Source of the DNA: Sphyrna mokarran
Taxonomy: Eukaryota
Direction of reading: 5' to 3'
Assembly (NCBI GenBank): GCA_024679065.1
Contig: JAGIQG010000009.1
Span: 100,068,001-100,132,000 of the forward strand
DNA: 64,000 nt
This document shows positions 24,517 through 63,421 of the stretch, piece by piece. The position numbers and the translations under genes are program-made. The stretch's first letter is position 1; each line of letters begins with the position of its first letter. Below the pieces are notes generated by a model. That model did not search any database, had not been told where the DNA came from, and saw only the letters and a list, made by a program, of their open reading frames with translations.

Positions 24517-24543
24517 CTGAACTTATTACTGGCCGCACTCGCT
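24517..24543 (-). CDS. Array microexon, terminal divergent copy (ERVRPVISS)
   Basis: gAG|AGCGAGTGCGGCCAGTAATAAGTTCAG|GTTAAA; positionally homologous, 27 nt, weak acceptor. Confidence 0.35.
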
Positions 24544-25184
24544 CTCCTCAAGCAGACGCGTGAAATCATTACTCCTTTCAAAGCTGTAAGCACGTCACAA
24601 ATCCATAGATATTTCAAATGACTGGCCATTGATTTTGGTCATACCTAAAAGAAAAATCGTATTTTTGGAAAGAAGCGCCCTGTATTCTCAAACTATTATC
24701 ACTTCAACGTTTATTTTAGATTTCCAGAAGCTGCAATATTTTGTTTTTAAATTTCCCTTAGTTGTTTTCGAGTATTGTTGGAGCTACACATATCAACTAT
24801 AACGCTTATACAGCTGTTGTAGTGCATTATATGGTCAAGAACAGCCCCAAGAATGCAATAACTGTGGATTCAGCGATTATATTGCCAATGAATCTCAATG
24901 GATGGAGACTATGTGTTTTCTCTTCTTGAAGCAGACGTTAACCTCGCAATACTGTGGGGCGAGTGTTAATTTTCAATTGTCAGCCAAAGAGAGCAAACTC
25001 AGGAAAACGTGAATTTCCCTTGGTCATGTTGAAAATCTTGATAATTGTGGACGAATACCATCTTGTGTATTGAATATAGCGAATGACTCATTCAACAATA
25101 CAATCGTATTATATAGTAACTGGTAGAGCAGCACTTTGGAGTGATTACAGCCAATTAGCGCAAACATTTGTAGTGGTTCTGTAA

Positions 25185-25625
25185 GGTCAGTCATCTCAGA
25201 AGGAATCCCTCAGGGTAGTTTTCTAGCCCCAACAGCCTTCAGCTGTTTCATGAATGTCCTTCAGATGTTGGGATGTTCGATGAAGATTGTACAACGTTCA
25301 GCAAAATTGGCGACTGCTCAGATACCCAGCCCATGTTCACACGCAACAAGGTCTGAAAAATATCCAACCTGGGACTGACAAGTGGCAAAGCACTTTCACG
25401 CCTCACAATTTCCACCCTTTAGCAATCACCAATGAAAAATACTCTAACCATAGTCCCTAGACTTTCAATGGTATTTCTATCAGTGATTCCCCCACCGCCA
25501 AAATGCTTAGGGTTACCATTAATTAGAAACTCAACTGGCTCACCACATAAACACAGTGACTACAAGAGCAGGTTAGCGGTTGGAAATAGTGCGACGAGTG
25601 ACAGACCGCTCAACTCCACAATGGC
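25185..25625 (+). mobile_element. CR1/L2-group LINE RT fragment inserted in the array
   Basis: ggaatccctcagggtagttttctagcccca ([14 protein letters not shown]) and gacaagtggcaa (DKWQ); opposite orientation to the LINE relic inside the units. Confidence 0.8.
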
Positions 25626-26372
25626 AGCTTGAGGCTATTCAGGCTCACTACTTAAAAATAGATTGTCGGTGGATGGTAGATTCATTTTGTGGAGATGCCA
25701 AATGGAGCAAGAAGTGATTAATTTGGGACTTCCGAGACTCTAATCTGCTGTTCTAGCCACATTATTTACATTATTGCACTGTTCAGTTTCTGTTCAGGAT
25801 GGACCACATTTTTTTTTTACCTTGGAGAATTCAGCAATTGTGTTGCAACGTTGTTTCAATGGATGGCGGTTCTGCATTTGGCTTCTTGGATTGAACCATA
25901 ATTCTGTGGCCAAACGCTACTTGTCAATTGTCAGGTCAAACTGGGATTTGTTTTTTTGCTAATACACTTGAAAATCTTGATCATCTCAGACAAATAGGTC
26001 ACTTCGATACAGTTTGTGACCACTCACTCATTGTATTTTGTTTTTTTTTTGTTAGCAGGAATGGTCCAGCAAAACTGCAATAATTATAGTCAACTGAATC
26101 AAGCATTTGTAAATTGAACAGATAGATCAGCTAGACAGAATAACTGGGTTAATCATTCTACAAATCAATTGAAGCTAGCGTCAAGTGCAATTGAAGTCAA
26201 TACCACTAAAAACAAAAATTTTACGAGTCGAGATAGAGGCAAAGTGCAACATATTTTTGTATTGTAGATGCCTTATTTAAAAATAGCATCCAAAATATTA
26301 AGGGTGACATTGAGACACATTGTGTTTAGTAGAAGAAGAGATGTACGCAAAGTTGACCTCTCCATATGTCAC

Positions 26373-26399
26373 CTGATCTTCTGGACATCTGGTCTTGAT
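26373..26399 (-). CDS. Array microexon (xQDQMSRRS)
   Basis: cAG|ATCAAGACCAGATGTCCAGAAGATCAG|GTGACA. Confidence 0.5.
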
Positions 26400-27019
26400 C
26401 TGTTCAAATGGATAAGTACAACTAATTAAACTTTCCAAACCTCTCAACATACGACTGAACCTGAGAAAATTTCATTGACCTTAATCAACATTCGTTTTCT
26501 TTTCAGAAAGCCAAAATCCGCTCAAAATTCTAAAATATTTGCTCTTAATTGAAAAAAAAATACATTTAGAACACTGCTTCCAGTGTAGCCAAAGTTAAAT
26601 TGTTGTCATGGGAATCTAATGAAAAACAATGATGTGAACTTGCAAAACGCTGTTTATTTTCTGCCCCCGAACCCGCCACCATCCCCCCCCCCCTCTCCGT
26701 TTTGTCGGTTAATGGCGTGTGCATTATATTAGGAATCCCTCCTTTTGCTAAAGAAAACATGAAATCATACGCTCTTTGTGCACATTTGTGAGAAGTTGTA
26801 TTTGCAGGCTGTACCAAAAAAAAAATGCTCATCAGAAGGTGAATCTCACCTGCATCTATAAAACCCGGCAGACCATACAATGTACATATAGCCAAGTTAC
26901 TGATAATGAGTGTATTCTATGATTTTGGCACAGCAAAATTAATAGCACGAAAATGTCATTTTTTCTGCATGGGATGAGGTGGGGCATGTAGGGGGCTGAG
27001 GTGGTGGCGGCGGTGGGGT

Positions 27020-60496: not shown

Positions 60497-60523
60497 CTGA
60501 TCTTCAGTCCATCATATAGATAT
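60497..60523 (-). pseudogene. Dead array microexon: donor lost and in-frame TGA
   Basis: cAG|ATATCTATATGATGGACTGAAGATCAG|AAAATA. Confidence 0.55.
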
Positions 60524-62100
60524 CTGTTCAAATGGACAAGGAAAGCCAATTAGTCCTTCCAAAGCTCCAGCCGTCCAAGAGAACTGATCAGATTTCAAAT
60601 AACGTTTCATTGACCTTCTCATTTTTTTTTTCAAGTAGGGGCTTTCCTCTTCAAAATTCTATCATATTTCATCTTAATTTAAATTTCCACTATCCGCAGC
60701 ATTTTGATGTCAGTCTTGTCAAAATGACATTGATTTCATGGGAGTAATGGGAATTAATGATTCACAATTGAAATAATGTTATATATGTGCTGGCCCTCCA
60801 CGATTGTGTCCGGAAATAGTGGTAACATTAAATTAGGAATCACTTTTCTTTCTTTATAAGAATAAACACCAACTGGTAATTTCTTTATCCTTATTCAAGA
60901 AAAGTAATGGCATCCGGTAGAACCAAATTCAATAGTCATCAGAATGCATCTGCATCCATGAAATCCGATAGACAATACAGAGGTGGAAAACCCATAGTGC
61001 CACTGACAAGAGCGTACCATGATTTTGATACAGTAAAATTCATGGCACCTCAATATATTTTATTGTCGGGTGGTGCTGTCTTAGTTTTAGACGGGAGCGT
61101 CTTTCCTTAAAGGTTATCGAAGAATTCCGCTTTTATGAGCCAAAAGTTATGTCGTGGGGATTTGGTTTCGAGTTGCTTTGATCAATTCCAGTAAAATAAT
61201 CTCGTTGCATAATCAGGAAACGGTGCAGGCCTGGATTGTGGAGTTGAACGGCTAGGTGGGGCCATTAAGCAATATTGGCTGACGAGTGCGATTGAACATC
61301 AAGTCAATGTGCTTTCTACTGGATGACGTTGAACTTATTACATGTTTTTGGAGCTATATCCATGATGGTTGATCGAGGCTTTGCAATCATACACGTTAAT
61401 TGTACGTTGTAGTCAGTGGACATGATGTTAGAAAAAGTCTGATGTGACAAAATGTAATCGGCTCTTTATTTGCGTCCGAGCCTCAAAATTCCTATTCTAG
61501 CAACAGTATTCACATTGTTCAGTTTTTTTTTAGCCAATATCGACCTAGAGGATTTTGACAGTAAGGATTCAATACTTGTATTGCCAATTAATCTCAATGG
61601 ATGAAGGGTACTTATTTCTCCTCGTGGATCAGGTTGTTGCCTCACAATTCTCTGGGCCGAATGATACTTGTCACTTCTCAGGTCACACTGGGAAAACCAG
61701 TAGAACTCGAGTTTCAACTGAACAGCTGAAAATGTTCATAATGTATGACAACTACTGGCTAATTGAATAATGCAAACTCCTTTTGTTATGTATTCTGGCC
61801 AAGGCCTGCAGTGTGAAAAATACATTCAGTTGGAAATAATATTTTCCAATTGATCAGATGAGTCAATGTCACCCAATGACTGAGGACACTTTTCTGCAAA
61901 TAAGTGGAAACAAGCGTCAAGAATAGTTGAAGTCAACGCCACGAAAGACGGAATTTTACGAGACTAGAGTGCAAGGGAGATTGTGTTTCTATATGTTGCC
62001 TTTGTTAAGTAAACCCTCCAAAATACTAAGAGTGGAATTGAGTCTGATTGAGATTGTTGGAAGCAGAGTGATACAAAAAGTTGGCTTACTGTTAAGTTAC

Positions 62101-62127
62101 CTGAGCTTCTGTCCATCTTGTCTCGAT
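62101..62127 (-). CDS. Array microexon (xRDKMDRSS)
   Basis: cAG|ATCGAGACAAGATGGACAGAAGCTCAG|GTAACT. Confidence 0.55.
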
Positions 62128-63394
62128 CTGACCAAATGGAAAAGAAAAGATTGAGCCTTTCCACAGAACTTATCAGATTTCAATGACACGTCATTCACCT
62201 TCATCAGTAATTCGCGTTCCTTTTGGAAAACATTTTCCTTTCAAACATCCGCTATTTATCTTCTTAAGTTAAAAATCCATTATATGCAGTGTTTTGATTT
62301 CTTTCTTGCCCAAACGAAATTGATATTCAAGAAGGGCTAGTAGGCATGTGCGATTTCCAATTGAGAGAACACTATTTATTTTCGGTCCTCCTCCGTTTTA
62401 GTGGTTAACAGTGTTAACAATAAAGTAACAATCCCTTTTTTCTATAACACATCACATTGCATCCTCATTGCATTCATCCATGAGAAGTAGTTGTTACCAG
62501 CTAGAGCTGAAATCATTGTTCATTACAGTTTGGAGTTGATGTGCATCCATTAAAAACTGCAGGACATGTGGTGTCTGGGAACACAGATTACTGATTTATA
62601 CCTGTTCCTTGATATTGTGACAGCGAAATTGATGGCATGGCAATACATATTAAGGTGACTTGTTTTCGGCATTGTGTAGGGAGAATGGGGACTTAAATAA
62701 TGTCGAGGAATTCAACTTACACATGTCAGCGTTGATGTATTTAGAAGTTGCAGTTGAAGTTGTTTGGATGAATTTCAGCAGTTGAGACTTGCGCACAATG
62801 ATGCAGTAGGGTGAGATTGACTTCTGTGATTCACGTGAAAGGCGGGGTATTTCACGATTGTTGGCTTACAGAGTGCGTATGGGCATCCAGCCAACTGCAT
62901 TATGTAGTTTGGCGTGATGGTTGTTCAGTGATGTTGGAACTTAATCTATCATGGCAGGTCACAGCTATTCAATTTTAGTTGAATAGCATGTCGCTGGTGG
63001 TGAATAACATTTTGGGCAGTTGCTGCATAGAACAAGAAAAGATTAACTCACTACTGAATAATCAAATTTGCTATTATTAGCACAATTGAAGAGCATAACT
63101 GTGTAATGATTACAATCTAATGAAGCACGCGTTTACAGATTTAACAGGTAGATCAATTACACACAGGGACTGTGGACATCGTTGTACAAGCTAAGGAAAG
63201 CAAACGCGAAGAACAATTTAAGCCACTTCAAATACATACGAAATTATGCGGAACGAGATATAACCAGATTGCAATAAGTATTCGTTCTGCTGATGAAATA
63301 GTTAAGCAAACACCTCAAAATACTAAGAGCAGCAATGAGAAACACTTAGATTTCTCGAAGAGACATATGGACATTCGGCTTCCTGAAATGTTAC

Positions 63395-63421
63395 TAAATC
63401 TTAATTTCTTTTTGTCTCGAT
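63395..63421 (-). CDS. Array microexon, divergent (DRDKKKLRF)
   Basis: gAG|ATCGAGACAAAAAGAAATTAAGATTTA|GTAACA; weak sites. Confidence 0.35.

Follow-up and report, generated by a model that had tools for sequence, protein, structure and literature searches.

Coiled-coil tails assembled from very small exons have been described for the chicken BG genes, in which, according to passages of two reports, the coils are encoded by 13 to 36 exons of 21 nucleotides (some of 18 or 24), exons for a signal peptide, an immunoglobulin V (IgV) domain and a transmembrane segment precede the tail, and the number of tail exons varies, the same passages contrasting these tails with the butyrophilin tails that end in a B30.2 domain (PMC5938342, PMC4046983). 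Parts of two further sources treat the tandem duplication of symmetric exons as an established route to disordered protein regions (PMC3632108), and report expanded TRIM genes on the shark chromosome that carries the major histocompatibility complex (MHC; PMC7677710). The locus described here lies in the genome of the shark Sphyrna mokarran (2.77 Gb), where a window of 64,000 nucleotides (C1548:100068001-100132000, contig JAGIQG010000009.1; ‘extended’ coordinates continue the count of the window beyond 1-64000) holds part of a tandem array of 27-nucleotide (27-nt) elements encoding DRDKMDIRS-type nonapeptides. We put at roughly 0.58 the probability that these elements are microexons of one shark gene for a coiled-coil rod, in which the block that they form would lengthen a short hinge to give a charged, flexible spacer. 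What appears to be a degenerate 1.65-kb satellite is thus likely to be coding, in a form that annotation based on open reading frames (ORFs) cannot detect.

A motif scan of the window recovered, at the same places and all on the minus strand, the 22 copies (24517-63421) that a first-pass annotation had reported from the letters alone, and bore out its observations that 21 of them are exactly 27 nt long, copy 53194 reaching 33 nt through a 6-nt duplication, and that 17 retain both a flanking AG and a flanking GT (the exceptions being 60523, 56776, 53194, 33733 and 28087). While that 22-copy array is real, the window shows less than half of it: the whole comprises 47 mutually homologous units with an exon position, each made up of the 27-nt exon and an intron and measuring approximately 1.65 kb, arranged in tandem over 116 kb and reaching extended 140340. 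The exon position is deleted in one additional unit (74149-74515), and several partial units and retroelement insertions are also present. A later, higher-order repeat of three units, approximately 5.4 kb long and 75% identical, extends from window position 63421 to extended 83712. Tandem Repeats Finder, whose period limit is 500, was blind to the array, with its unit of approximately 1.65 kb. A genome-wide pattern search allowing one mismatch returned nine matches, every one of them within the array, and none for a control pattern; the array is found only at this locus. The tree of its units is almost star-shaped, terminal branches contributing 13.8 of a total length of 15.3, which corresponds to one old burst plus some later block duplication.

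The alignment of all 47 units that had been proposed as a check on the annotation, taken over 250 nt upstream and 350 nt downstream of the exon, demonstrated that splice sites, length and frame are held above the intronic background rather than being indistinguishable from it: (i) the AG of the exon is retained in 42 of 47 copies, as against 0.24-0.67 of copies at the 29 intronic AG positions of the same unit, and its GT in 38 of 47, as against 0.15-0.65 at 31 intronic GT positions, with joint retention in 36 of 47 (P = 4e-10 using rates from exon-adjacent columns alone); (ii) 34 of those 36 copies are 27 nt long and open in phase 1, the other two being 25-26 nt and frame-breaking, and this rate of altered length (2/36) compares with 4-18 of 34-36 copies in 18 intronic 27-nt windows; and (iii) phase-1 stops are absent from all 34 intact copies, whereas simulations gave 8.8-11.7 and reached zero in 0 of 400 runs. 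Within the intact set, phase 0 is closed in 23 copies and phase 2 in six (including 38736), as the phase pattern first noted had implied, and phase 1 is open in 34 of 34, with no stop at the junctions between copies. Stops occur in three of ten gap-free splice-dead copies as against none of the 34 (Fisher p = 0.009), and a CpG codon appears in intact copies as CAA five times and as TGA never.

These same data bear on the possibility that the array is an intronic, satellite-like repeat whose founder unit contained an AG..27 nt..GT motif by chance and which has since evolved neutrally. The entire 1.65-kb unit is homologous among copies, the exon is conserved only modestly above it (0.81 versus 0.72 +/- 0.03, a contrast that errors in intron alignment may exaggerate), and the ratio of non-synonymous to synonymous differences per site (pN/pS) lies near 1, all as such a repeat would have it. 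The combination of splice-site retention, stop avoidance and length constraint nevertheless leads to the rejection of neutral evolution, the copies agree in phase, size class and strand with the exons of the surrounding gene, and a clearly homologous exon of that gene's family has formed a second array next door; we consider a neutral origin highly improbable, and the 27-nt elements, judged by their pattern of change, likely to be real microexons.

The encoded residues present a different picture. The pairwise pN/pS of the block exon is 1.2, compared with 0.33 in 26 collinear coil-exon pairs of two paralogous genes and 0.65 in 18 older coil exons of the host gene, and the caution originally attached to the many non-synonymous changes was therefore both right and important; the peptide repeat does not hold up as a conserved sequence. 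Synonymous changes number 21 of 151 when counted against the majority sequence (neutral expectation 0.20), and 21 of 134 when mapped on the tree (p = 0.20). We make no claim that the exon is under positive selection: the majority-sequence count gave p of about 0.01, but the tree-based test does not reproduce it. The residues thus appear to be free of purifying selection, with splice sites and frame selected instead, so that two kinds of selection are separated within one exon family: frame and splicing are held while residues drift.

The repeat was initially viewed as a free-standing protein of no recognizable type, a view that its surroundings overturn. Across 414 kb, a generic scan for splice sites found phase-1 coiled-coil exons of 27, 30 and 36 nt flanking the block on both sides and on the same strand, and a trained scan of 1.01 Mb yielded, at a score of at least 14, 158 candidate exons on the minus strand and seven on the plus strand. 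The run of microexons extends over about 1.8 Mb, with exon lengths that range from 24 to 36 nt and peak at 27, 36 and 30 nt, and an all-against-all comparison placed its start exon (MAGPVDEY...) at extended 412383, -220585 and -597560; by these three paralogous start exons the run resolves into at least four genes in tandem. The host gene extends from 412383 to at least -159210, a span of about 570 kb and about 120 exons, in which the two arrays are preceded by about 35 and followed by 36 candidate exons that are intact and join into open frames (a set found through being intact, so that dead exons are uncounted). Between the flanking coil exons there is no start exon of the family’s known type and no B30.2 exon, and a candidate last exon at -161763 (C1548:99906237), 2.5 kb beyond the last microexon, has a strong acceptor, 38 codons, a stop and an AATAAA 35 nt past that stop. 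The block is therefore likely, on this sequence evidence, to be an internal part of a coiled-coil microexon gene of approximately 570 kb, one of at least four tandem paralogues.

The identity of the family emerged from its sister members. The last exon of the paralogue that starts at -597560 encodes a B30.2 domain (PF00622, E 7e-8) and retrieves a single protein, catshark XP_038671249.1 (945 aa, 58% identical), and 40 exons of the sister paralogue, counted by hand, find their best matches in order along that protein, as do the front exons of the host gene. Since an automatic gene model in catshark joins such small exons, transcript support in that species is suggested; its name, ‘zinc-binding protein A33-like’, looks automatic and fits the B30.2 part only. 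The ESM Atlas contains clusters of SPRY proteins 1277-1802 aa in length under automatic names, two of which are unrelated to B30.2, and these may represent the host family under misnomers; such clusters hold 55-137 long proteins, ‘nucleoprotein TPR isoform X51’ being one of the names. All 53 MHC class I matches in the genome lie on this same contig at 85.8-95.8 Mb, as do most SPRY matches, at 91.8-112.9 Mb (150 of 228 candidates scored). The host family lies in the shark MHC-linked TRIM/B30.2 region and resembles the tails of BG proteins and butyrophilins, its database names being automatic misnomers.

Just upstream of the 47-unit array lies the second one, formed by 12 copies of another exon that are 85-96% identical, all splice-intact (12/12) and younger; 12 of 13 distinct changes among them are non-synonymous, for a pN/pS of 2.8. 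The host exon order is EITRLRNRLYNA (a weak-scoring candidate), 12 exons of the EKKDRPRYD type, and the 47 DRDKMDIRS-type units, while that of a sister paralogue is EIKALKDRLWDA, EKKPPKYD, DREKLEAIQRDL, the paralogues carrying one exon at each of the two positions. The hinge exon EKKPPKYD, located in the sister paralogue, is similar in DNA to the 12-copy exon, and the DRDKMDIRS exon has 12 of its first 17 bases in common with the 36-nt exon DREKLEAIQRDL, the catshark equivalent of which is DRDTLEAIQKDI. A single-sequence fold of XP_038671249.1 breaks its helix at 499-503, which is the junction of these two exons. By position, two exon arrays would occupy the places of two unamplified exons, where the helix is predicted to break, the 12-copy exon would correspond to the hinge exon of the family, and the DRDKMDIRS exon would be a shortened form of the 36-nt exon.

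When the 34 intact copies are joined by script they encode 306 residues without a stop, consisting of 22% Asp, 17% Arg, 11% Met and 10% Ser with a net charge of about 0, and the Met/Asp/Arg-rich composition originally proposed is thereby confirmed for a non-coil segment. Heptad power is 0.15 in the block and 0.30-0.54 in its flanks and in the catshark rod, and the contents of Glu (2%) and Leu (4%) are low beside those of coil (13-21% and 13-17%), which together make it unlikely that the block continues the coil; its helix cost is also higher than that of coil segments. According to the mechanism that we propose, unequal crossing-over would have multiplied two adjacent hinge exons together with their introns, mostly in one old burst, an amplification that could be tolerated because every exon is in phase 1-1. 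Up to 12 + 34 exons, in variable number, would then be spliced in series to yield up to approximately 410 residues of near-neutral, D/R/K-rich, non-heptad sequence, serving as a spacer in the rod. The maintenance of frame and splicing, but not of residues, is as expected for a spacer in which length and charge outweigh sequence. The rod protein would, in that case, have used exon amplification, twice and in adjacent exons, to make a long non-coil segment out of a helical module.

The same divergence among spliceable copies could instead reflect a variable cassette, in which each messenger RNA takes one or a few of the 34 + 12 copies and the hinge peptide differs between isoforms in the manner of Dscam. 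Copies that remain spliceable and open while their residues diverge (pN/pS 1.2, and 2.8 in the 12-copy array) are what such a system would produce, as are the single exon per position in the paralogues, the weakness of the acceptors, and look-alike Atlas names such as ‘isoform X51’, a label suggesting many predicted isoforms. The introns flanking the arrays, however, contain only chance-level complementarity to the unit (best E 0.33 and 0.96), a comparison that a weak or short docking or selector element could escape; the non-synonymous excess is not significant on the tree (21/134 synonymous); and 27-nt exons keep the frame without any exclusion mechanism. We regard alternative use of the copies as rather unlikely, and the same doubt applies to its fullest form, in which 34 + 12 interchangeable nine-residue exons would belong to an MHC-linked immune rod that shed its B30.2 domain as in chicken BG. 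If it were true, splicing would choose different copies, or different numbers of them, from cell to cell, so that a charged segment would be tuned in both length and sequence, within an undescribed immune gene family.

Several observations weigh against the interpretation of the block as a spliced, flexible spacer derived from the hinge. Splicing of the copies is inferred from selection; 11 of 47 copies are splice-dead, and two of the 36 with AG and GT break the frame in spite of them; the mean acceptor score is 4.7 in the block and 1.8 in the 12-copy array, weaker than the 9.0 of coil exons; and the best 20-nt window of the alignment, at the exon and donor, scores 0.88 beside 0.85-0.86 for the best intronic windows. 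Descent from the 36-nt exon is argued from position and the 12/17 bases, and mainly from position, because a DNA profile of the block exon failed to single that exon out, ranking it below the first 8 of 315 catalogued; the interval from 24517 to 12245 yielded none of the exons that would be expected to follow it directly. The catshark fold is of low confidence (mean predicted local distance difference test score, pLDDT, 55), charge-hydropathy fails to separate the block from two of three coil segments, and disorder of the block is plausible on compositional grounds. Finally, protein and DNA profiles that find the B30.2 exons of two sister paralogues found none after the last microexon of the host gene, and the tandem cluster may be decaying.

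This last group of facts is central to a further alternative, in which the copies served as exons while the amplification took place and afterwards, whereas today the gene, or the block within it, is silent or skipped, so that the signal records past selection. The B30.2 exon not found for the host gene, those of the sister paralogues being broken or truncated (that following -220585 carries stops and frameshifts, between -564618 and about -565100), the 11 splice-dead copies and the residues without purifying selection would all suit a relic. The absence of stops from 34 intact copies, the intact, open-frame candidate exons upstream and downstream (about 35 and 36, subject to the manner in which they were found) and the candidate last exon with its stop and AATAAA do not, and would leave room for recent silencing only; we judge this explanation unlikely. 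In the sister paralogue that starts at -597560, a premature stop cuts the B30.2 exon (C1548:99103300-99103839) short by about 20 codons.

The features of the window, together with those beyond it that define the second array and the start of the host gene, are collected in Table 1.

Table 1. Coordinates of the exon copies, host exons and inserted elements (window positions unless marked extended; in the text, copies are named by their higher coordinate)
Feature	Position	Strand	Remarks
Array part in window, ~1.65-kb units	24517..64000	-	Continues to extended 140340; 47 units, 34 intact
27-nt microexon, AG/GT intact	63395..63421	-	DRDKKKLRF
27-nt microexon, intact	62101..62127	-	
Splice-dead copy	60497..60523	-	Donor lost, in-frame stop
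27-nt microexon, intact	58933..58959	-	
Splice-dead copy	56750..56776	-	Acceptor lost, donor GC
27-nt microexon, intact	55163..55189	-	
27-nt microexon, intact	54787..54813	-	Short 376-nt unit
Splice-dead copy, 33 nt	53162..53194	-	6-nt duplication, acceptor lost, in-frame stop
Retroelement inserted in array	47787..51747	+	Fills most of 6-kb gap between copies 53194 and 47109
27-nt microexon, intact	47083..47109	-	
27-nt microexon, intact	45495..45521	-	
27-nt microexon, intact	43754..43780	-	
27-nt microexon, intact	42130..42156	-	
27-nt microexon, intact	38710..38736	-	
27-nt microexon, intact	37065..37091	-	
27-nt microexon, intact	35394..35420	-	
Splice-dead copy	33707..33733	-	Acceptor lost
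27-nt microexon, intact	32116..32142	-	
27-nt microexon, intact	30480..30506	-	
27-nt microexon, intact	29637..29663	-	DRDKMDIRS
Splice-dead copy	28061..28087	-	Donor lost
27-nt microexon, intact	26373..26399	-	
Last and most diverged copy, intact	24517..24543	-	ERVRPVISS
Uncertain 27-nt candidate host exon	19537..19563	-	Good splice scores, atypical peptide
27-nt coiled-coil host microexon	12219..12245	-	EAEIDERDA; first clear exon past block
36-nt coiled-coil host microexon	10658..10693	-	ELAELQEALKNS
30-nt coiled-coil host microexon	6871..6900	-	ATQKLANALQ
Weaker 27-nt candidate host exon	3152..3178	-	
Second array, 12 copies of other 27-nt phase-1 exon	extended 146466-174034		Unit 1.85 kb
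Host first coding exon	extended 412264-412383 = C1548:100480264-100480383		Hydrophilic 39-residue stretch

Additional properties of the host gene and its insertions were recorded along with these features. The element at 47787..51747 is, judging by the likeness of its ORFs, probably a CR1-type long interspersed nuclear element; two retroelement copies that are 96% identical lie in inverted orientation 44 kb apart in the gene (window 4633-6255 and 50128-51747), and an inverted repeat of 269 bp with 98.5% complementarity (arms 20161-20429 and 20930-21197, spaced by about 500 nt) has arms that are apparently a retroelement fragment. In the rear part of the host gene, from window 12245 to extended -91249, coil exons of 27, 30 and 36 nt follow one another six times each, all of them intact. 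The three start exons all conserve a DEY(I/M)NI tyrosine motif, reminiscent of receptor signalling motifs. The candidate last exon ends in a moderately hydrophobic stretch of 17 residues (mean hydropathy 1.62) followed by basic residues, which might, speculatively, act as a tail anchor of the kind found in long coiled-coil tethers; an internal donor also permits a 33-nt exon there.

Searches for other domains and relatives returned little. The start exon has no database homologue in a protein search and no Pfam family; inspection of 148 of the 647 unmasked long ORFs in 1.01 Mb brought no large exon to light; and a RING-like pattern matched nothing convincing among ORFs of at least 60 aa in the same 1.01 Mb, no RING or B-box profile having been run. 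No V-set match was listed in the host interval among 150 of 1261 candidates scored and no immunoglobulin (Ig) exon was seen there; a dense cluster of V-set exons occupies C1548:81.1-81.85 Mb, immediately ahead of the MHC class I genes. Neither an SPRY nor a PRY search of the whole genome (with 150 of 228 and 150 of 208 candidates scored, respectively) listed a match in the tandem gene cluster, and its divergent B30.2 exon was missed as well. An SPRY exon at C1548:98.91 Mb was rejected as the end of the gene, no microexon run leading to it, and the idea of a type II lectin stalk was given up, without recourse to profiles, when neither a lectin nor a membrane exon turned up. A protein search with a 40-aa natural frame containing one copy produced one candidate and no match, and a profile of 18 natural 30-aa frames, compared with 1.84 billion proteins, matched one unrelated Cys-rich protein through the intronic part of the frames; nothing can be concluded from the latter search, since in a positive control that profile failed to detect the spliced block. 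A literature search covering sources other than subscription papers and supplements turned up no account of either these genes or the amplified block.

The exclusive exon clusters of Dscam are similar to this locus in maintaining dozens of homologous exon variants that remain spliceable as their residues diverge, and differ in that no docking or selector element was found here and that the exons are 27 nt long rather than domain-sized. Catshark XP_038671249.1 is collinear with 40 exons of the sister paralogue and with the host front, and has long helices and an SPRY (B30.2) end, but it carries a single hinge segment and a single DRDTLEAIQKDI segment with no amplified block, and the host is without a detectable B30.2 exon. 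As described (PMC5938342, PMC4046983), chicken BG genes and the BG-derived zipper protein have in common with the host an MHC-linked multigene cluster, tiny coil exons with a split first codon, a variable exon number, a tail without B30.2 and non-synonymous variation in that tail. The host is unlike BG in its exons of 24-36 nt, which peak at 27, 36 and 30 nt and are not the 21-nt heptad exons of that family, in their number (about 120) and span (approximately 570 kb), in that no Ig or membrane exon was found among the candidates scored, and in the non-heptad nature of its amplified block. Butyrophilins (BTN/BTNL; PMC4046983, in the part that treats their tails) have a few heptad repeats followed by B30.2 and lie in or near the MHC, and the sister paralogues likewise end in B30.2; the rod of the host is far longer, and neither Ig domains nor B30.2 were found in it. 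The tandemly duplicated symmetric exons covered in part of PMC3632108 offer the remaining parallel, in that internal duplication in the same phase leads to low-complexity, probably disordered sequence, and the exons of the present locus are symmetric in phase, keep an open frame and were duplicated in tandem along with their intron. Compared with those exons, the ones described here have reached 47 + 12 copies over approximately 150 kb, with satellite-like introns, a size of nine residues and a likely origin in a helical rod.

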